Below, one piece after another: positions 1,962 through 49,360 of a stretch of DNA of 64,000 nt. Location of the stretch: contig JBHIDJ010000006.1 in NCBI GenBank assembly GCA_046760105.1, positions 3,197 to 67,196 on the forward strand, in the 5' to 3' direction. Source of the stretch: Acidiferrobacterales bacterium (lineage in GTDB: Bacteria > Pseudomonadota > Gammaproteobacteria > Acidiferrobacterales > SPGG2). The notes beneath the pieces are model-generated. The model was not told where the DNA came from. It did not search any database and saw only the letters and a list, made by a program, of their open reading frames with translations. The translations under genes and the position numbers were made by a program. How positions within the stretch are numbered: the first letter of the stretch is position 1; every line of letters starts with the position of its first letter.

Positions 1962-1970
1962 TCTCGAGAG

Positions 1971-2063
1971 TCGTGAACCGTTAACCGTGAGTCGGAAAGC
2001 GTAAAGCGTGTAGATTGCGCGTCGTCGACTTGCCCCTCACGACTAACGATTAACGACTAACGA
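1971..2063. repeat. heptamer-array inverted-repeat element, TCGTGAA/..TAACGA family, copy 1
   Basis: 93 nt stay in one 7-nt register: tcgtgaa ccgttaa ccgtgag tcggaaa gcgtaaa gcgtgta gattgcg cgtcgtc gacttgc ccctcac gactaac gattaac gactaac ga. The first six units are xCGTxAx and the last four are their reverse-complement type. The element starts 10 nt after the apaG stop and ends flush with the gyrB stop (2064). Confidence 0.85.
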
Positions 2064-7087: not shown

Positions 7088-8425
7088 TTACGTAGTCAAT
7101 ATCTTTATGAGGTTCTCATAGTCCTCTTTAGCACGGACATCGCTGGTAACCAGTGTGTTGATCTTACGGCATGCGTGCAGCACCGTTGTGTGGTCACGCC
7201 CACCGAACGCATCACCAATCTCTGGGAGGCTGTGATTCGTAAGCTCCTTGGCGAGCGCCATTGCCATTTGCCGTGGTCGTGCTACCTGTCGGGAGCGGCG
7301 CTTTGAGTGTAAGTCTGACACCCGTATCTTGTAGTATTCGGCGGCCGTCTTCTGAATGTTGTTGATCGTGACTAGCCGCTCCTGAAACGCGAGCAAGTCC
7401 TTCAGGCTTTCGCTGGCGAGCTCTACGTTAATCATGCGGCCAGTGAAATCTGCATTAGCCATAACACGACGGAGCGCGCCTTCAAGCTCACGTACATTTG
7501 AACGCACACGCTTGGCAATGAAGAAGGCAACCTCGCCTGGTAGCGTCGCACCGTCACTTGCCGCCTTCTTTATGAGGATAGCAACCCGCGTTTCCAGCTC
7601 CGGTGGCTCGATCGCAACCGTCAGCCCTGACCCGAAGCGCGATATTAATCGTTCGGCGACCCCGATGAGGTCTTTCGGGAAGCGGTCTGCGGTAATGATA
7701 ACCTGACGTTGACCTTCCAGTAAGGCATTGAAAGTATGGAAGAATTCCTCCTGAGAGCGCTCCTTGCGCACGAAGAATTGGATGTCGTCGATGAGCAGTG
7801 CATCGAGTGAGCGGTAGAATCTCTTGAACTCATTGATGGCATTGTGTTGTAACGCTCGGACCATGTCCGCCACGAAACGCTCCGCGTGCACGTAGGCAAC
7901 ATCCGCCCTAGGCTTACAGTGCAGCATCAGGTTTCCCGCTGCTTGCATAAGGTGGGTTTTACCCAACCCGACACCCCCGTAGATGAACAGCGGGTTGTAC
8001 GCTCCACCCGGGTTTTCGCCAACCTGGTTTGCAGCGGCGCGCGCAAGCTGATTGGACTTACCCTCGACGTGGCTCTGGAACGTGAACTCTGGGTTTAGCC
8101 GGCCGACTACAGGCACGGCCTTATTGCCCACGCTCGCCGTGCGTGTTGCAATCGGTGTTGCATTCGCCAGTGCCCGCTCTTGACCACCGACCTCCACATA
8201 CACGCTCACGCTGCCAGCGGCGTCGTACTGTGTCGCGAGCTCGGCGATACGTTCCATGAACCGCTCCCTTACCCAATCCATCACAAAGCGGTTGGGTGCT
8301 AGCAACCGCAACACACGCTCTTCTTTTATTGCTTGCAGTGGACGGATCCATGTGTTGAATTGTTGGGTAGGTAGCTCCTCCTCTAACCGCGCTAGGCAGT
8401 TTGTCCACAAGGCTGGATGTGTCAT
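7088..8425 (-). CDS. dnaA: chromosomal replication initiator DnaA
   Basis: [19 protein letters not shown] Walker A, LLIDDIQF, and C-terminal [27 protein letters not shown]. Start set to ATG 8425 ([19 protein letters not shown]); the track ORF extends 19 codons further. Confidence 0.96.
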
Positions 8426-9356: not shown

Positions 9357-11019
9357 CACGCGTTTCTTGCTGATTATCGCGCTCGCGATCATCATATTCT
9401 TGATTTTCCAGGCGTGGCAAGAGGAACAACGTCGGGCGGCTGAGCCGCCCGAGATCGCGACAGCGCCCGCCACCCCGGATGCGCCGGATGCGCCCAAGCC
9501 CCCGGCGGCTGAGACACCGGTACCAGCCCCACCTGCGGTGGAGGAGCGACCCACGAAGGCACCCGAGGCACCGCCCACCCGCATCGAGACGGGCGCGCAA
9601 ATTACGGTGGTGACGGATGTGGTCGAGGCGGTCATCGATACCGCCGGCGGCGATCTGCGCGAGCTCAAGTTGCGCAAGTACCCGGTGTCGGTCGATAAGC
9701 CGGATGAGCCCTTTGTGCTGTTGGAGAGTGCCGGCAAACATATCTATGTCGCGCAGTCGGGGCTCATCGGCCTCGATCGGGAGTATCCCACTCACAATAC
9801 GCGTTACCAGGCAGAAGCAAGCCGTTATGTACTGGCTAAGGATGCGGATCGGGTGCAAGTGCCGCTGCGCTGGCAGGCACCCGATGGCGTGCGCTACACG
9901 AAGCTCTATACCTTTCACCGCGACAGCTACGTCGTCGATGTGGAGTTCCTTGTCGAGAACACCGACGCCGGGCCCTGGGAGGGGCATCTCTACCGTCAGT
10001 TCCGCCGGCGATATATCGATCCCAAGCGCGGCTGGTTGGCACTGCCCACATACACCGGTGCCGCCATCTACACGCCCGAGGATAAGTACGACAAGATCTC
10101 TTTCGGCGACATTCGCGACGAGCCGCTGGAACGCGACGTGACCGGTGGTTGGGTCGCGATGTTACAGCACTATTTTGTGGGTTCGTGGATGCCGGCAGCC
10201 GACGAGCGCAACCGCTTTTACACGCTGGCGCTCGCGGACGACAACTACACCGTGGGCCTGAAGCAATTAACGCCAACCACCGTGGCGCCGGGCGCGAGCG
10301 GCCGGTTAAAGACAACGATCTACGCTGGCCCCAAAGAAACCCGTCGTCTGACGCGGCTGGTGGAAGGCATGGAGCTTACCGTCGACTACGGCTGGCTTAC
10401 CGTCATATCGGCGCCGCTGTTCTGGTTGCTCCAGTACATTCACGGCTGGGTTGGGAACTGGGGCTGGGCGATCGTCGTGCTCACTTTTATCATCAAGCTC
10501 GTGTTCTATCCCTTGTCAGCCGCGAGCTACAAGTCGATGGCGCACATGAAACGGGTGCAGCCAAAGCTGCAGAGCCTGCGGGAACGCTTCGGTCATGACA
10601 AGCAGCGCATGAACCAGGCGATGATGGAGCTTTACAAGAAAGAGAAGATCAACCCGCTAGGCGGCTGTCTGCCGATCGCGATCCAGATCCCGGTGTTTAT
10701 CGCGCTTTACTGGGTGTTGCTCGAGAGCGTCGAGCTGCGCCAGGCGCCCTTCATTCTCTGGATCACGGATCTAAGTGTTCGGGATCCCTTATTCGCCTTG
10801 CCCCTGATGATGGGCGCGACCATGTTTATTCAGCAGAAGCTGAATCCTCCTCCCCCGGATCCGATGCAGGCAAAGGTCATGATGGCCTTGCCGTTCGTGT
10901 TCACGGTGTTCTTCCTGTTCTTTCCCGCGGGACTGGTGCTTTACTGGCTGGTTAACAACATCCTCTCAGTCGCCCAACAGTGGCAGATCACACACATGAT
11001 CGCGGCCAAGGCAAAATAG
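9349..11019 (+). CDS. yidC: membrane protein insertase YidC
   Basis: [25 protein letters not shown]-terminal TM, a long periplasmic domain, and the C-terminal core [19 protein letters not shown]...[20 protein letters not shown]. Start set to ATG 9349; the track ORF carries 35 extra codons. Confidence 0.95.
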
Positions 11020-18320: not shown

Positions 18321-18416
18321 CTCGTTAACTGTAAATCGTTAGTCGTGAAGCGAGACTACGGCGCTGGCGTAACGCCGCACAATTTACACCTCACGGATCA
18401 CGACTAACGGTTTTAA
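18321..18416. repeat. heptamer-array inverted-repeat element, TCGTGAA/..TAACGA family, copy 2
   Basis: Left units are ctcgtta actgtaa atcgtta gtcgtga agcgaga. Right units are cctcacg gatcacg actaacg. A perfect 12-bp inverted repeat pairs cgttagtcgtga (18337-18348) with tcacgactaacg (18398-18409). Shares the 11-mer cacgactaacg with copy 1. Begins 2 nt after the mnmG stop. Confidence 0.8.
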
Positions 18417-18591
18417 CCCACGGCGGGGTCAAGGTGTTGAACAGGCCGCACTACGGCGTTGACGGTTTCGTAGGCGATCGAGCCCGACTGACCGTCGGGC
18501 GCCGCCATCAAGTCGCGACTAGTTACACCCTGGTGGTCAGGGTGTGGTTATGACGTGCCTTGTAGCAATCGCTTGTCGGCAGCGGTACGCA

Positions 18592-27008: not shown

Positions 27009-27869
27009 ATGGCGGTCGGTAGAGAGATACGAAAAAAGATCAAGAGCATCCAGAACACGCAAAAGATTACGCGTGCGATGGAGATGGTAGCGGCAAGCAA
27101 AATGCGCCGGGCGCAAGAGCGTATGAGTGCCGCCCGACCGTATGCCGACAAGATGCGCAATGTCATCGGCCATCTGCACCATGCGCATCCTGAATACCGA
27201 CACCCATTTTTCACGGAGCGCGAGGCCAAGAACGCAGGTCTCATCGTTGTGACCACGGATCGTGGTTTGTGCGGTGGACTCAATACTAATGCGTTGCGTA
27301 CGGCGCTCGAAACGATGAGAGAGTGGGACAAAAGGAACGTCAGCACTCAGCTGTGCTGCATCGGCACCAAGGGTTTAACGTTTTTCCGGCGCATCGGCGC
27401 AAACATCCGTTCGGAAGTTACCCACCTCGGCGATACGCCGCGGGTGGAAGACCTTATCGGTACCGTCAAGGTGATGTTGGATGCGTACGTCGACTCAGCC
27501 ATTGATCGCCTACACATCGTTTACAGTCATTTCATAAATACTATGAGCCAGCGGCCAGTGATCGAACAGCTATTGCCGCTTCCAGGAACGGAGGAAGAAG
27601 AGCTGACACATTACTGGGATTATATCTATGAGCCGGACGCGCAAGAGGTTGTCGATGATCTGTTGCGGCGTTACATTGAAGCGCTGATCTATCATGCTGT
27701 AGTCGAGAATCTGGGGTGCGAGCAGTCGGCGCGCATGGTCGCGATGAAGTCGGCCTCGGACAATGCGGGCAAACTTATCGACGAGTTTACGTTGAAATAT
27801 AACAAGGCGAGGCAGGCGGCGATTACACAAGAGATTTCCGAGATCGTCGCTGGCGCAGCAGCCGTCTAA
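27009..27869 (+). CDS. atpG: F0F1 ATP synthase subunit gamma
   Basis: [32 protein letters not shown] and C-terminal [20 protein letters not shown]. Confidence 0.97.
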
Positions 27870-27870
27870 A

Positions 27871-27967
27871 AGTCTAGTTGCAAGTAGCAAGTGGCAAGCG
27901 ACAAGGAGCAGGCCAGGAACAGGGACCATGTCCGGTTTTTCTTGCTACTTGAAACTTGCTACTCGCT
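27871..27967. repeat. heptamer-array inverted-repeat element, GCAAGTA/CTTGCTA family, copy 1 (atpG-atpD spacer)
   Basis: Left units are ttgcaag tagcaag tggcaag cgacaag gagcagg. Right units are tcttgct acttgaa acttgct actcgct. A perfect 11-bp inverted repeat pairs caagtagcaag (27881-27891) with cttgctacttg (27941-27951). Starts 2 nt after the atpG stop and ends 3 nt before the atpD SD AAGGAGG. Confidence 0.85.
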
Positions 27968-27971
27968 GTAA

Positions 27972-29356
<1,385 letters not shown>

Positions 29357-29357
<1 letters not shown>

Positions 29358-29449
29358 AAAGCAGTAGCAAGCGCCAAGTAGCAAGTGACAAGTGAAACAC
29401 CCAAATTTGGTTTTCTTGCTACTTCACAGTTGAAACTTGAGACTTAGTT
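29357..29449. repeat. heptamer-array inverted-repeat element, GCAAGTA/CTTGCTA family, copy 2 (atpD-atpC spacer)
   Basis: Left units are gtagcaa gcgccaa gtagcaa gtgacaa gtgaaac. The centre holds the 10-bp palindrome ccaaatttgg. Right units are ttcttgc tacttca cagttga aacttga gacttag. Inverted repeat aagtagcaag (29376-29385) with cttgctactt (29415-29424). Fills the spacer from the atpD stop to the atpC ATG. Confidence 0.85.
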
Positions 29450-29872
29450 ATGGCGATGACCATGCATGTGGATATCGTGAGCGCCGAAGAGGAAATCTAC
29501 TCGGGCACGGCAGAAATGGTGTTCGCGCCTTTGGCGACAGGCGAGGTGGGGATACTGCCGCGCCACGCGCCGCTGATCGCGCGTATGAGGCCGGGCGAAG
29601 TGCGCGTGCGCAAGGGTGGTGAGGACCAGTTTTTCTATGTCTCGGGTGGGCTGCTAGAGGTACAGCCGCATGTTGTGACGGTGCTTTCGGATACGGCGGT
29701 ACGCGCCAAAGATCTCGATGAGGCGGCTGCGGTAGAAGCCCAGCGCCGAGCGGAGGAGGCGCTCAAAGACAGAAAAGCGGACATCGATTATGCCAGGGCG
29801 CAGGCAGAGTTAATCGAGGCCACCGCCCAACTACGCATGATTCGTCGCCTGCGCGAGAAGCTCAAGAAATAG
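29450..29872 (+). CDS. atpC: F0F1 ATP synthase subunit epsilon
   Basis: [43 protein letters not shown], the typical epsilon N-terminus. Confidence 0.95.
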
Positions 29873-31570: not shown

Positions 31571-31759
31571 GCCGTGTATCATGACTCGTGAAACCGTGAG
31601 TTGTGAACCGTGGATTGGGTAGCAAGGGAAGGCTCACAGTTGTGCATCAAGACGCTCCTGATTAGTTGCTTACGACTAACGAATCACGAATTACGACTCA
31701 CGACTAATGACTAACAACTCGCGAATTACGACTCACAAATCACAACTAACGACTTACGA
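31564..31759. repeat. heptamer-array inverted-repeat element, TCGTGAA/..TAACGA family, copy 3 (largest; glmU-glmS spacer)
   Basis: The right arm is 13 contiguous heptamers at 31669-31759: cttacga ctaacga atcacga attacga ctcacga ctaatga ctaacaa ctcgcga attacga ctcacaa atcacaa ctaacga cttacga. The left arm at 31564-31613 carries the complementary word: atcgtga gccgtgt atcatga ctcgtga aaccgtga gttgtga accgtgg. It spans from the glmU stop to the glmS SD. Confidence 0.9.
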
Positions 31760-31767
31760 GGTGTACT

Positions 31768-33618: not shown

Positions 33619-36600
33619 TTATTGCCAGCACTCACCCGGCGCGTTCGCTTTGCCTTTGCCCGGATCAGTCTGAGCCGGTGGCTCGCGGACGAGACCCTCG
33701 TCCTGCTCGAACCGCTTGTGTGTTCTGTAAATCTGCCGGCGTTTGTCGAACCAAGGGCGTGCCTTGGAAATTCTCCATTTTTTCTTGCCATCACGCAGTT
33801 CGACAGCCACCGACAGAGCACGGAGTTTTGCGTAGAAAACCCCCGCGACCTGGCGCTGAAAAATATCGAGTTCACCGAGAATTTTGAGCCTGTCTCCTGT
33901 CATCTCGAGATCCTCGACCTCGACCGCCTTGCCATCCATCTTGAAGTCAGCACGGGTTTTGATGTCTGTAACGGTGAGCAGATTCTTGAACCACCGGACA
34001 ATCCCCTTTTTTTCTGAAAGAAGCACGACAACGGGGCGCGAGTCACGCATTTCCATCTCAATGCGCGCCTCGAGCTGCGCCGGGGTCGTTACTTGCATTT
34101 TGGCTTGCGGCAAACTAAGACGCGCCCACCAGGTAGTATCGGTGCCGATCTTGGCAGTCCCGACGTACATGTTATTGAGTTCAAGCTTTGTGTCACCTAT
34201 GTCAAATGTGCGTGCCTTCAGGTCACCGTTCTTGAGGTGGGCATGTAGCGTCATGTCGCCCGCCATTGTCACGTTCCTGAATTGAGCCACGATCCGCTCG
34301 GCGCGGAACTCAACCTCACCCTTCGCTGACGCCTCCGTTTCGGATGCCTCAATGCGGGTTCGGATTCGACCACGGCCGGAATGTATAAAAAAGCAGGAGT
34401 CGGGCGGGACATAAGCGTTGTAGAAACCGAAGTTCGGAACGTCGGATTCTGGTAGATCCAGGACCACTTTAAGATCAGTAAACGGATCGGTGAGATCCAA
34501 TTCAGAGCTCGTACCGGTGATTTCGAAGCCGATGCCGAAAATGTGGGGTTCTACGTATTCTGACCTTCCGAGTTCGAAGTCATCCAGCGTTACCGTCACT
34601 TCCGCAAAGGCCCGATCCTTCTCGCGAGCGACGCGGCCACGTACCTTGCCCGAACCGCGCGCCTTAAAGTCGAGATAGGTGGCTCGAATCTCATCGGAGT
34701 CAACGGCCAAGCGACTACCGGCAACGAGCCTCCCTTTGCGCACGCGCAAGAAAGCATTGAGCGTTCCGGACCCATTAATATCGAGCCATGGCGCCTTACG
34801 GAAATAGGCGTTCAGGAATTGCAAGCCAGGGACACGGCCAGCCACGCGCACAGTCCCGGATATTGAACGCAATGCATCTTGGCTTTTTTGCTCAGCGAGT
34901 ACGAGGTGGTCAAATATGGAGTCAACGTTTATCGTCAGATCCTTAACGGCCTTTCCATCCCTGAGCCGTACCTCTCCCGAGGCCAACTGTAGCGAAGCTT
35001 TGCGTATAGCCAGTGGCCCTTCGGTAAGAACGATTAGACCGTCGGCGCGCTCGCCCTTATCACTCGGCCCATACTGAACATCGGTCACGACCTTCAGATT
35101 TCCCGACAGGGCGACGTCTTGGAATGCGGCGGCGACACCGGTGCCGGTTATTGCGAGGTTAGCGGTTGTGGTGGGGTGCCCTTGGGCAGTCTCAAACAGG
35201 CCGTCAAAGCGACCAGCGCCGGACCGGATGCGCAGCCCCGTCCGTGACGGAATGTAGTTATTAAGATAGCTCAGATCTGGTATGGTGCCGTCGACGCGCG
35301 CGGATGCGGACATGAAACGCGTCAAGTCGAACACCTTTTTTAGATCTAGAGTGTACTGGGCAAACTCGGACTGCAACTCTAGCGTAAAGTCTTTGGCAAT
35401 GGTTTGCTGCCGATCGCGTATCTTTCCCGAGGTGAGCGTCACCGATGCTTTCAACACTTCTAACCACCCTAGCTCGCTGAAGGCGACCAAGCCCTTATCG
35501 TCCCGCTCCTGCAACCCATATTGAAGGTCGGCACTCAACTCTAGCTCGCCGGCGACAACGAGATCTTTGAGCTCGGCCGTGACATCTTCGCCAATGAGTA
35601 CTAAGTGGCCCGTAGCATCGGGTTGCCCCGACGCCGTCTCGAAGCGGGTCTGAATTTGACCGGTACCCGAACGGATGCGTAGACCCGTCTGTGATGGGAG
35701 GTAGTCATTGAAATATGGCAGATTCGGAATCCTACCAGCGACACGCAGCGATCCAGAGGTGTAATCGAATACACTGAGCGCTTTGTGTGGATCCAGCGTG
35801 TATTGGTCAAAGGCGGATTCGAGCTCTAGCGTGAAATCCTGAGCGATGACTTGCTGTCGATCGCGTATCTTTCCGGAGGTGAGCGCGACTGAAAGCTTCG
35901 ACACTTCGAACGGCGCGTCGGAGAATACGATCAATCCGTCTTCGTCCTCTTCCAACCCGTACTCGAGGTCCGCCTTAACACTCAAATCACCGCCAATGGT
36001 GAAATGCCTGTATTGCATTACCGTACCTTGGCCTACGACCTCGATTTTACCCTCGGCCGTTCGTTCTTGCGGGGAGCTCGTAAAGCGGCTGCGCATGCGG
36101 CCGCTACCTGCACGAATGGTGATGTCCATCTCTTGCGGGATCAATGTGTTGAAAAAGCTGAGCTCCGGCACCTCGGCGTCCGGCAGGTCGACGATCAACG
36201 TTAGGTCAGTGAAAGGGTCACGTAGGTCGAGGTCGCTGCTGGTACCACTGACCTGTAATTCACGGCCAAGAGCAAAAGGTCTTTGTGCTTGCGCTTGTGC
36301 CAGCTCAAAAGTCTCTAGCGCCACGGACACTTTTGCTACGGGCTTCCCGTTCTCGAGTTCGACGCGACCCTGCACCTTACCTGGGCCCTTGGTGGTGATG
36401 GTGTAATTGGCTGCGTTAATCACGATTTCTGCCGTTTCGACGGTGACACGGGTTTCCTGCGACAGCACCCCTTTCTCCAGGTGCAGTTCAGCATCCAGCA
36501 CGCCGCTGCCATCGATATTGAGCCACGGCATTTTGCGGAAGTAGGCTTTCAAGAAGTTCAAACCTTTTACAGCTGCCGTATGGCGCACAGTTCCCGAGAC

Positions 36601-37338
36601 GAATCCCAAGGCTTTGATGCCTTTCTCTTCGCTGGGGACGAACTCATCGATCGTAATATCGGCATGCAGTTCACTGTCTTCCTCAACGACCGTGTCTCCT
36701 ATCCACCAGTTCCCTGAGGTGAGCACTACAGTTGCGCGCGGCACTTCAAGCGGTCCTCTGATGGTGTGTATCATGCTACCGCTCACGCGCCCGTCGCCAG
36801 CGAAGCGGAATTGCTCGATCCACAATGTGCGGACATCACTGATTGCGATGTTGTTCATCTCCAACGTCCACGGGGACTTACGGGTTGTCCGCGGGTACAG
36901 GTTTTCCGGGGGTGGCTGCGGTGGGTTCGAGAGCCCGGGAATAGATGGAGTTAAATCAACATATTGAGGTTTGGGCTCGTCTGGACGTAATCGCTGGCGC
37001 ATCCGGAACTCGAGCCCACGGCCGTTCATCGAATTGGCCTGGAACCGTTTCAGCAAAAGCGGGATTAAATCGATCGATGCACGAATCTCGTCGAGTTCCG
37101 CATACCACTGAAACCTTCTATCTTGTCCGCGAATCTGGAGACCTTGAACGTGAACAATGCCGGGGAACAGCGTCCAACCCTTTTCCCATCGAATCCACAA
37201 TTTCTCCGGCTTTCGGTTGATTAGTTGTGATGCTATCTCGGTATTGAGAAAAAGGTTTGCCAGCACGAGGTAAAGCCCTGTGACCACGACCACCGCGATC
37301 ACGACATGCGTTAGCCACTTTCGCAGAGATGACTTCAT
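33619..37338 (-). CDS. 1239-aa N-terminally membrane-anchored repeat protein; AsmA/TamB/YhdP-like architecture (function unassigned)
   Basis: One N-terminal TM (WLTHVVIAVVVVTGLYLVLANLF), then beta-rich sequence with internal modules. An outer pair is GTSSDLDLRDPFTDLTLIVDLPDAEVP versus GTSSELDLTDPFTDLKVVLDLPESDVP. Tandem inner modules are SGKIRDRQQVIAQDFTLELESAFDQYTLD versus SGKIRDRQQTIAKDFTLELQSEFAQYTLD. The family assignment is inferred from architecture only. Confidence 0.85.
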   Translation of the reverse strand: MKSSLRKWLTHVVIAVVVVTGLYLVLANLFLNTEIASQLINRKPEKLWIRWEKGWTLFPGIVHVQGLQIRGQDRRFQWYAELDEIRASIDLIPLLLKRFQANSMNGRGLEFRMRQRLRPDEPKPQYVDLTPSIPGLSNPPQPPPENLYPRTTRKSPWTLEMNNIAISDVRTLWIEQFRFAGDGRVSGSMIHTIRGPLEVPRATVVLTSGNWWIGDTVVEEDSELHADITIDEFVPSEEKGIKALGFVSGTVRHTAAVKGLNFLKAYFRKMPWLNIDGSGVLDAELHLEKGVLSQETRVTVETAEIVINAANYTITTKGPGKVQGRVELENGKPVAKVSVALETFELAQAQAQRPFALGRELQVSGTSSDLDLRDPFTDLTLIVDLPDAEVPELSFFNTLIPQEMDITIRAGSGRMRSRFTSSPQERTAEGKIEVVGQGTVMQYRHFTIGGDLSVKADLEYGLEEDEDGLIVFSDAPFEVSKLSVALTSGKIRDRQQVIAQDFTLELESAFDQYTLDPHKALSVFDYTSGSLRVAGRIPNLPYFNDYLPSQTGLRIRSGTGQIQTRFETASGQPDATGHLVLIGEDVTAELKDLVVAGELELSADLQYGLQERDDKGLVAFSELGWLEVLKASVTLTSGKIRDRQQTIAKDFTLELQSEFAQYTLDLKKVFDLTRFMSASARVDGTIPDLSYLNNYIPSRTGLRIRSGAGRFDGLFETAQGHPTTTANLAITGTGVAAAFQDVALSGNLKVVTDVQYGPSDKGERADGLIVLTEGPLAIRKASLQLASGEVRLRDGKAVKDLTINVDSIFDHLVLAEQKSQDALRSISGTVRVAGRVPGLQFLNAYFRKAPWLDINGSGTLNAFLRVRKGRLVAGSRLAVDSDEIRATYLDFKARGSGKVRGRVAREKDRAFAEVTVTLDDFELGRSEYVEPHIFGIGFEITGTSSELDLTDPFTDLKVVLDLPESDVPNFGFYNAYVPPDSCFFIHSGRGRIRTRIEASETEASAKGEVEFRAERIVAQFRNVTMAGDMTLHAHLKNGDLKARTFDIGDTKLELNNMYVGTAKIGTDTTWWARLSLPQAKMQVTTPAQLEARIEMEMRDSRPVVVLLSEKKGIVRWFKNLLTVTDIKTRADFKMDGKAVEVEDLEMTGDRLKILGELDIFQRQVAGVFYAKLRALSVAVELRDGKKKWRISKARPWFDKRRQIYRTHKRFEQDEGLVREPPAQTDPGKGKANAPGECWQ

Positions 37339-49237: not shown

Positions 49238-49360
49238 GGACGATCCTGGTGGATCGTCTTGCCCGCTCCTCCTCCCTGAGCGGGTAGTTCCTGGGCTTTT
49301 TCTTATGCAGGAACGGTTAGGCCCCGGGCTCTCTCCCCTTGTTTTCCGGGGCTTTTTTTT
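49238..49360 (+). ncRNA. candidate small RNA in the polA-engB spacer (Spot42/ErsA-position)
   Basis: Four consecutive hairpins. (1) gacgatcc/ggatcgtc, 49239-49258, 8 bp perfect. (2) cccgctc/gagcggg, 49262-49284, with loop CTCCTCCCT. (3) gttcctg/caggaac, 49287-49314. (4) gccccgg/ccggggc, 49321-49352, followed by T8 (49353-49360). No ORF. Confidence 0.45.

Follow-up and report, generated by a model that had tools for sequence, protein, structure and literature searches.

A heptamer-array hairpin in the atpG/atpD spacer of an Acidiferrobacterales bacterium: a probable copy of a dispersed, fast-turnover repeat

What is an imperfect hairpin of ~100 nt, built from 7-nt units, doing between two cistrons of an ATP synthase operon? 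The question was raised by a 64,000-nt stretch of an Acidiferrobacterales genome (assembly GCA_046760105.1, contig JBHIDJ010000006.1, positions 3,197 to 67,196 of the forward strand), hereafter the window, which is the oriC-proximal region of a gammaproteobacterium (gyrB-dnaN-dnaA ... mnmG-rsmG-parAB-atpIBEFHAGDC-glmU-glmS). The hairpin, which we call E1, occupies the whole atpG/atpD spacer, and a first-pass annotation of the window had proposed a role for it in setting synthesis of the beta subunit. We think it probable, with moderate confidence, that E1 is instead one copy of a lineage-wide, fast-turnover class of heptamer-array palindromic repeats at gene 3' ends, similar to the short tandemly repeated repetitive (STRR) sequences of cyanobacteria; nothing shows that it is a dedicated conserved regulator of beta-subunit synthesis. 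Each such element has a unique centre between two arrays that face one another, both made of a degenerate heptamer in which ~5 bases are conserved and 2 vary. The comparisons below show the elements settling in short spacers behind stop codons, within operons or between convergent genes, expanding and decaying by 7-nt units, and giving way over time to elements made of other words.

E1 and its immediate flanks comprise the following features.

27009..27869, + strand: atpG (F1 gamma subunit), a 286-aa open reading frame (ORF) with Pfam PF00231; stop TAA at 27867-27869
27870..27969, + strand: E1, the entire heptamer-array hairpin in the atpG/atpD spacer, from fold, inverted repeat and period-7 scan
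27871..27912, + strand: left array of E1, 5' and purine-rich, ~6 CAAGTNN-type units read directly; period-7 score 0.81
27913..27940, + strand: unique centre of E1, 28 nt, with two of three GGA motifs, a mini-hairpin and a T5 run
27941..27967, + strand: right array of E1, 3' and pyrimidine-rich, cttgcta cttgaaa cttgcta ctcgct
27970..27983, + strand: atpD Shine-Dalgarno (SD) sequence AAGGAGG at 27970-27976 and start ATG at 27981-27983, read directly and from the ORF list

The arms of E1 are arrays of the degenerate heptamer CAAGTNN / NNACTTG. The left array reads agtctag ttgcaag tagcaag tggcaag cgacaag gagcagg (ttgcaag onward being 27878-27912), its units decaying toward either end of the array. 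Tandem Repeats Finder (TRF) reported period 7 with 3.3 copies at 27876-27898, and a self-match scan placed the period-7 arrays at 27869-27912 and 27936-27969. The arms share an exact 11-bp inverted repeat, CAAGTAGCAAG, at 27881-27891 (+) and 27941-27951 (-). Within the centre lie a 4-bp mini-hairpin, GGAC-cau-GUCC, at 27923-27933 and the T5 run, which adjoins the right arm at 27936-27940. GGA motifs are found at 27905-27907, 27916-27918 and 27923-27925, with a fourth inside the atpD SD. The stem begins 2 nt past the atpG stop and finishes 2-3 nt ahead of the SD. Read directly, the coordinates, arm sequences, three GGA motifs and perfect inverted repeat of the first-pass annotation were all as described; so was the filling of the spacer, which it had put at 2 nt after the stop to 3 nt before the SD, and its architecture of heptamer array, unique centre and complementary array is structurally correct. 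The AtpG protein is 100% identical to the F0F1 ATP synthase subunit gamma of an NCBI entry labelled 'MAG: Acidiferrobacterales bacterium' (MAG, metagenome-assembled genome). E1 is not an assembly artefact, since two independently assembled genomes of this organism (L081 and L082; L numbers designate the comparison sequences) agree on its spacer at 100% identity.

Several measures place E1 beyond chance. When self-matches of at least 0.7 in 28-nt windows were scored over the whole window for periods 3-12, period 7 alone was enriched, with 48 positions versus 0 for each of the other periods. The word GTAGCAAG occurs 9 times in the 64-kb window, where 1.4 occurrences are expected, and 0 of 100 shuffles reached 9. 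The inverted-repeat arms of E1 (26 nt, 77% complementary) are the second longest in the 64 kb, and the minimum free energy (MFE) of the E1 RNA is -42.5 kcal/mol, compared with -30.5 +/- 3.7 for shuffles (z -3.24; 1 of 200 shuffles equally good). These results confirm the observation of E1.

Two candidate features at E1 were set aside. An 18-codon mini-ORF at 27928-27984 that begins in the E1 centre is probably no gene, its frame being broken by a 1-nt indel in L331; a similar ORF of 17 codons exists in L330. The TGA of the mini-ORF and the atpD ATG overlap, which is trivial because atpD begins ATGAGT in all relatives. A three-frame stop-codon trap formed by TAG/TGA-containing heptamers was rejected for E1, which has no frame +1 stop before atpD.

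Other hairpins of the same design are present in the window.

29358..29445, + strand: E2, same word family as E1, in the atpD/atpC spacer; cagtagcaag cgccaag tagcaag tgacaag ... ggttttcttgctacttcacagttgaaacttgagactt
31571..31762, + strand: TCGTGA/ACGACTN heptamer hairpin in the glmU/glmS spacer; TRF period 7 at 31672-31759
18322..18418, + strand: TCGTGA-type hairpin immediately 3' of the mnmG stop, followed by TTTT; from the inverted-repeat list
1962..2063, no strand: TCGTGA/ACGACTA heptamer hairpin between gyrB and a convergent ORF; from the repeat and period-7 scans

As the first-pass annotation had it, E1 shares its design with the TCGTGA family and uses another word, the TCGTGA-type hairpins standing at three more gene ends. 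In the glmU/glmS hairpin, the stop codon marks the start of the left array, and 12.6 units make up the right one, which extends into the glmS SD. E1 and E2 both contain GGTTTT(T)CTTGCTACTT; apart from the T-run, the E1 centre differs from those of E2 and of other family members. The hairpin of E2 is weak (MFE -20.6 kcal/mol, z -0.78), and the order of its right-arm units, CTA, CCA/ACA, AAA, AGA, is that of the atpD/atpC element of L009. According to a curated spacer list, period-7 arrays are confined to 5-6 of the ~31 window spacers of at least 45 nt and use two words; all of these 5-6 spacers are downstream of a gene, 3 of them co-directional, 2-3 convergent and 0 divergent.

The CAAGT word is also dispersed well beyond the atp operon. 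A metagenome scan with the right-arm pattern CTTGCYACTTGNNACTTGNNAC returned at least 132 matches at no fewer than 120 loci, and at least 34 of these matches have a CAAG-heptamer partner array within 130 nt upstream. Such paired hairpins stand at unrelated loci, including glmU/glmS (L310), glyA/nrdR (L292 and L321), the region downstream of tuf (L236) and many gene ends, and several occur per contig in L224, L249, L292 and L313. A 22-mer of the E1 right arm, CTTGCTACTTGAAACTTGCTAC, was found exactly in the unrelated metagenome contigs L224 and L292. CAAGT-bearing contigs, most of them at 57-67% GC, also have paired arrays of other words, among them GACTGAG, CAGGTAG, TATCAGT, AGGAGTC and GTGACGC. 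L292, Muproteobacteria/Sulfuricaulis-like by its GlyA, belongs to the same order as the window, and among 80 named gamma- and betaproteobacterial genomes only a few (L001, L007, L009 and L060) have such hairpins near atp. Judged from these sequences, the class appears to be lineage-enriched, and neither universal nor specific to atp.

Some features of individual copies were recorded alongside. The glyA/nrdR spacer, from the SHMT stop to the NrdR start, is occupied by a CAAGT-type hairpin in two organisms (L292 3540-3640 and L321 1530-1600). Many CAAGT-type hairpins open with CAGT and close with ACTG (CAGTAGCAAG...CTTGCTACTG), for example at window position 29361, L009 5023 and 6493, L224 6274 and L240 1970; these ends resemble terminal inverted repeats, and no flanking TA or other target duplication was seen at the CAGT...ACTG hairpins of the CAAGT family, hereafter family A. 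In L248 (~8050-8130), the centre of one CAAGT heptamer hairpin encloses a GC-rich palindrome like the repetitive extragenic palindromic (REP) sequences; loops of heptamer hairpins accept further insertions. Many small IMG/VR viral contigs (4-14 kb) contain, among the matches listed, clusters of degenerate CAAGCNN arrays such as CAAGCTTCAAGCTCCAAGCCGCAAG (L083 1185-1281, L084 2037-2133, L109 947-999, L137 4169-4307), which can self-pair because CAAGCTTG is self-complementary. Viral contigs were considered as vectors of the CAAGT family and rejected, as all 12 matches were direct arrays with no partner arm.

We then compared the same spacers in contigs carrying AtpG homologues at 73-86% identity (L203, L204, L206, L207 and L329-L334), all of them syntenic; in a collection of species-representative genomes the closest AtpG had 71% identity, with none nearer. 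A tree of AtpG, AtpD and AtpC showed a shallow radiation (85-90% identity) in which L204, L206 and L207 form a tight group. The atpG/atpD spacer carries a CAAGT-type element in the window, L330 and L331, a GTGAGG/CCTCAC-type element in L203 and L329, and a CGCAGAT inverted array of 11-nt period in L334; in L204, L206, L207, L332 and L333 it measures 24-40 nt and has no element. At atpD/atpC the word is CGCAAAG/CTTTGCG in L204, L206, L329 and L334, GTGAGGC over the remnant of a CGCAAAG right arm in L203 and L330, GTGAGG in L207, and CAAGT in the window and L009, with no element in L331, L332 and L333. The glmU/glmS spacer has TCGTGA in the window, L206 and L207, GTGAGG in L204 and CGCAAAG in L334. 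L009, a more distant MAG with 66% AtpG identity, has CAAGT-type hairpins in atpA/atpG, atpG/atpD and atpD/atpC alike, and the atpA/atpG boundary is also occupied in L333. Arrays usually start at or over the stop codon (TGAGTCGTGA..., TAGTGAGGCG...) and extend into the SD, and adjacent spacers within one operon often carry one word (window, L009, L203, L334). The earlier remark that these elements have a design in common, and not a sequence, is thus correct and extends across genomes, with at least four words in the same spacers of relatives.

The CGCAAAG-family right-arm remnants (gcgtctttgcgctagaagttttg / gcgcctttgcgttggaggttttg) lie 3' of the GTGAGGC hairpin at L203 12437-12486 and L330 10596-10629, one element having overwritten the left part of an older one in these two atpD/atpC spacers. 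The same spacers hold other repeats. Inverted arrays of ~11-nt period, ACGCAGAT/ATCTGCGT, form a separate repeat class, found in the Muproteobacteria MAG L334 at 10868-11009 (atpG/atpD) and ~8150-8300 (upstream of atpA), and in atpG/atpD of L014, an unrelated gammaproteobacterial chromosome. GC-rich REP-like palindromes (CCCTCTCCC...GGGAGAGGG) are seen in atpA/atpG of L334 (9848-10000) and in atpG/atpD of L033 and L039.

How old is E1? Its right arm and SD-proximal part align with the atpG/atpD elements of L330 and L331 (alignment A2; window CTTGAAACTTGCTACTCGCT versus L330 CTCGAAACTGGCTACTCGAT, 17 of 20 matching), and therefore E1 is probably older than this radiation and was lost or replaced elsewhere, an age taken from one short gapped alignment of a repetitive arm. 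The likeness may also be convergence toward the family consensus, the same 22-mer being present in unrelated contigs. E1 is also dispensable, being missing or replaced at atpG/atpD in seven other relatives. In L330 the atpG/atpD word has drifted to CGAGT/ACTCG in both arms, in one or two units only, which suggests concerted or compensatory change. Hairpin z scores run from -0.6 in L330, -0.78 in E2 and -1.8 in L331 to -7.9 in a perfect, young-looking atpG/atpD copy of L009, and this spread from perfect to decayed points to insertion turnover and not to a structure under purifying selection. A recent in-situ switch of word between near-identical genomes was considered for L204, L206 and L207, whose Atp proteins are 96-99% identical, and rejected: with identity of only 80-93% in their flanking coding DNA, none of the word switches is very recent.

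In 31-32 family-A hairpins, 97 paired heptamers were compared. Their two variable positions were complementary in fractions of 0.39 and 0.44, versus 0.30 and 0.43 with partners shuffled, the first position being marginal, and no excess of G-U pairs was found in these heptamers (18 G-T mismatches, 29 A-C). Conservation therefore extends to the pentamer, spaced every 7 nt in either orientation, and not to a finely compensated stem. Among 27 co-directional elements, folding of sense and antisense strands gave no sense advantage (11 versus 15; mean difference 0.3 kcal).

The arms have a strong polarity. In a sample of 64 paired heptamer-array hairpins drawn from the window and L001-L334, the 5' arm was purine-rich in 61, covering ~19 of 22 distinct words; G exceeded C in 56 versus 5, and A exceeded T in 53 versus 8. 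Generic 10-bp inverted repeats from the same loci gave 56:29 for purines and 42:42 for G versus C. Because an inverted repeat reads alike on both strands, the polarity does not depend on the direction of transcription. One candidate cause is that exposure of a C-rich arm able to load Rho is avoided; a generating mechanism with its own polarity is another.

This polarity is one of several points that weigh against E1 being simply a copy of a repeat in turnover, since it says that the elements are not shaped by neutral processes alone. The atpD/atpC spacer is occupied by some element, of whatever word, in 10 of the 13 genomes examined, which could reflect selection for a hairpin there and not an insertion hotspot. 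Across the window, L330 and L331, conservation of the E1 right arm and its SD-proximal part is about that of coding DNA, and this could mean a function at the atpD translation-initiation region. Finally, neither a transposase nor a target-site duplication turned up, nor an identical master in multiple copies, no search specific to the REP-associated tyrosine transposase (RAYT) having been run, so that mobility of the elements is inferred from turnover only.

As part of the atp transcript, E1 must form a long, imperfect stem-loop in the mRNA. One further feature is needed to describe its base.

27861..27867, + strand: last atpG codons and first base of the stop, GCCGUCU, predicted partner of the atpD SD in the fold of 27821-28021

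Folding of 27821-28021, by MFE and partition function, predicted that 27861-27867 and the SD (27971-27977) form a 6-bp helix. Within it, SD bases 27971-27973 and 27975-27977 have a predicted unpaired probability of 0-0.13 and A27974 is unpaired; the start codon lies open. In the predicted fold the atpD SD becomes free once the footprint of a ribosome that terminates at atpG is masked. In such a model the fold would loop out ~100 nt and set the atpG stop beside the atpD ribosome-binding site, and the base of the stem would pair the last atpG codons with the SD as a 6-bp clamp. The operon may tolerate the insertion because stop and SD remain effectively close, which would preserve or even tighten re-initiation or translational coupling. 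E1 may also block 3' exonucleases and protect the upstream atpI-G mRNA, as the stem-loops of REPs and bacterial interspersed mosaic elements (BIMEs) do. Such effects on stability or coupling are plausible. A folding comparison found no systematic occlusion of the SD: relatives with and without elements showed no systematic difference in accessibility of the initiation region, and any effect of E1 would therefore be modest or idiosyncratic.

Could E1 then be a selected post-transcriptional device of the atp operon, setting the gamma:beta ratio through mRNA stability or processing, stalling at termination or the SD clamp? The close fit of the stem between stop and SD, the predicted helix released by a modelled terminating ribosome and the right arm conserved in L330 and L331 speak for it, as does the presence of elements at boundaries where subunit stoichiometry changes (G/D and D/C, and A/G in L009 and L333). 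REPs stabilise the mRNA upstream of them, and a REP stem-loop within ~15 nt of a stop is reported to reduce the upstream gene's expression. We nonetheless regard such a device as unlikely. The role in beta-subunit stoichiometry suggested by the first-pass annotation does not fit the relatives, five of which have no atpG/atpD element and two another word, while the hairpins of the two apparent orthologues fold unremarkably; accessibility of the initiation region shows no systematic difference between genomes with and without elements, the variable positions neither covary nor show a G-U excess, and the same design stands behind unrelated genes. A transcription terminator or attenuator, either a partial stop in the sense direction or, on the antisense strand, a hairpin with CUUUUA behind it (complementary to the TAAAAG of the atpG stop), is very unlikely. 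An A-rich run does follow the stop codon in 11 of 31 family-A elements, the mnmG-proximal hairpin is followed by TTTT, and some family centres enclose a GC-rich stem and T-run, as in L220. Against this, a terminator and promoter scan called no terminator-like site at 27870-27980 (E1) or 29358-29449 (E2), the sense-strand hairpin of E1 has no U-tract on its 3' side (flank CGCUGUAAGGAGG), and a fixed A-run/hairpin/T-run architecture was rejected because only about one third of family-A elements have the run at each flank. Least credible of all is a platform for CsrA/RsmA, which the first-pass annotation had read from the three GGA motifs within 21 nt, to which the fourth in the SD may be added. 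In both the MFE and centroid structures the three motifs fall in stem segments and the apical loop is CAU; the trio is absent from the L330 centre, reduced in L331 to two placed elsewhere, and lacking in E2 and three L009 elements; and GGA is expected by chance in a purine-rich arm. With the motifs in stems and the trio not conserved, the CsrA idea is left without support. Rfam 15 gave no match at E1 or E2 at the gathering threshold across the window, and no relevant one at E <= 10 in 27700-29600.

Two other explanations look to DNA. E1 might be a REP element, or a doublet of REPs forming a hairpin (REPIN), mobilised by a RAYT (Y1 transposase) that recognises a GTAG hairpin, and the extragenic downstream location, imperfect palindromes, several families per genome, fast turnover and CAGT...ACTG ends of many members all recall such elements. 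GTAG occurs in the commonest variant of the heptamer's variable part, and the first-pass annotation had taken GTAG/CTAC for REP heads. Yet GTAG alternates with GTGG, GTGA, GCGA and GTTT within the tandem array and forms no fixed 5' head, and it is wholly absent from other words of these genomes. Family-A arms are arrays of 3-7 heptamers, variable in copy number, and their centres are unique and 4-91 nt long: E1 is neither a single palindrome of 20-40 nt with an invariant 5' GTAG nor two inverted REPs around a conserved short spacer. As GTAG is variable and the centres are unique, the defining features of REPs and REPINs are missing, and we consider this origin quite improbable. We give similarly little credence to the arrays acting as DNA sites, that is, heptads bound cooperatively by an abundant protein (an omega-like ribbon-helix-helix protein, or IHF/HU) for chromosome organisation or transcription insulation. 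A conserved pentamer at strict 7-bp spacing with non-covarying variable bases is what repeated protein sites look like, folding shows no strand bias, and the distance between arrays varies (4-91 nt); in Geobacter, paired 7-9-nt arrays on opposite strands include one pair between proB and proA (PMC2700814). On the other hand, at least four unrelated words coexist per genome and swap at one site, which would need as many proteins, or none, and elements that lie strictly behind stop codons and in no divergent promoter region are better explained as elements of transcribed regions.

The closest known kind is the STRR sequences, the E1 class being a proteobacterial counterpart of these in design and location. 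STRR have been known in cyanobacteria since 1990 and, to our knowledge, have no accepted origin or function. Hairpin-forming 7-bp repeats between hupS and hupL are an example, for which a role in transcript stability or translational coupling was proposed and whose function is unknown (PMC2670836); in Nostoc 7120, ttgtcag arrays and ctgac arrays share one spacer (PMC2408588 Table 3). Like the E1 class, STRR are intergenic 7-bp tandem units with several words per genome and with pairing arrays between cistrons of one operon, and the E1 elements in turn have a 7-nt unit, are intergenic and dispersed, use multiple words and form hairpins between cistrons. The host of E1 is, however, a member of the Acidiferrobacterales (Gammaproteobacteria) and not a filamentous cyanobacterium, and its words are different ones, not known from STRR. 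In the E1 class, moreover, paired arrays with a unique centre, starting at the stop codon and ending at the SD, are the rule. We know of no description of word replacement at orthologous sites or of arm polarity for STRR.

Four further systems can be compared with it. Geobacter metallireducens has paired tandem-repeat 'global regulator binding sites' of classes 1-3 (Aklujkar et al. 2009; PMC2700814). Here too two arrays, each of 3-5 tandem units of 7-9 nt, lie on opposite strands a variable distance apart, in tens of copies per genome and several words, with one pair between the co-transcribed proB and proA. Unlike the E1 class they were read as DNA sites for IHF/HU-like proteins, have periods of 7, 8 and 9 and come from an unrelated lineage, and no comparative turnover was reported for them. 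The TAACTGA repeats of marine Beggiatoaceae, cyanobacteria and Bacteroidetes (MacGregor 2015; PMC4679880), for which a post-transcriptional role was proposed, resemble E1 as intergenic heptamers that end just upstream of starts, essential operons included; they differ in having a single exact word in direct repeats, chosen because they lack structure (169 sets direct, one inverted), whereas E1 has a degenerate word in inverted paired arrays that fold. REP, BIME and REPIN elements of Enterobacteria and Pseudomonas share with E1 the extragenic imperfect palindromes 3' of genes and within operons, the several families and the rapid turnover, and differ in having no tandem 7-nt substructure, a fixed GTAG head bound by RAYT and, in REPINs, a conserved spacer. 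These elements are barriers to 3' exonucleases and modulate expression of flanking cistrons, and the REP stem-loop is the best model for how E1 would work on mRNA. The omega ribbon-helix-helix repressor of inc18 plasmids binds contiguous 7-bp heptads (WATCACW). Its sites are, like the E1 arrays, contiguous, both direct and inverted, cooperatively read and of period exactly 7, but they are plasmid promoter or centromere sites with one word, a known protein and no long unique centre.

Two observations elsewhere in the window are recorded here. The Rfam family RF02837 anti-hemB (Burkholderia RNA 7) matches at 49260-49360 (+) with 52.3 bits and E 2.5e-9, the only Rfam match in the window above the gathering threshold and a notable occurrence for Acidiferrobacterales. 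Directly downstream of glmS, on the opposite strand, lies a conserved ORF of ~1240 aa (window 33619-37338, -), with counterparts at L203 16425-20177, L204 16349-20074, L206 16435-20157 and L207 16347-20072; no Pfam match is on record for it in any of these four relatives.

For the atp operon itself E1 is probably of little consequence, being dispensable in relatives and with its CsrA link unsupported. E1 is a modest object, and the replacement of words at orthologous sites together with the arm polarity, both properties of the class, is the more interesting part. A bolder idea, which we hold to be doubtful, is that heptamer-array hairpins are a distinct self-renewing class of prokaryotic repeats with a generating machinery or reader of their own that works in steps of 7; it would link the Acidiferrobacterales elements, STRR, the Geobacter arrays, the heptamers of Beggiatoaceae and the viral CAAGCNN arrays. 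If this were true, the polarity would reflect how arrays are made, for instance by addition of heptamers to 3' ends on both sides of a break, or a constraint at the level of transcription, such as keeping a C-rich, Rho-loading arm from exposure in either direction. In operon spacers such as atpG/atpD the machinery would then write, and write anew, structured RNA between cistrons. What the comparison does describe is an order of sulfur-oxidising Gammaproteobacteria that fills the spacers of core operons (atp, glmUS, glyA-nrdR and mnmG) with hairpins of 7-nt units, in which the word changes between relatives while position, design and strict arm polarity stay. A second lineage, distant from cyanobacteria and with orthologous sites in states of gain, loss and word replacement, offers a comparative system for the origin of such arrays, and one that also allows asking whether they matter for the stability or translational coupling of operon mRNA.

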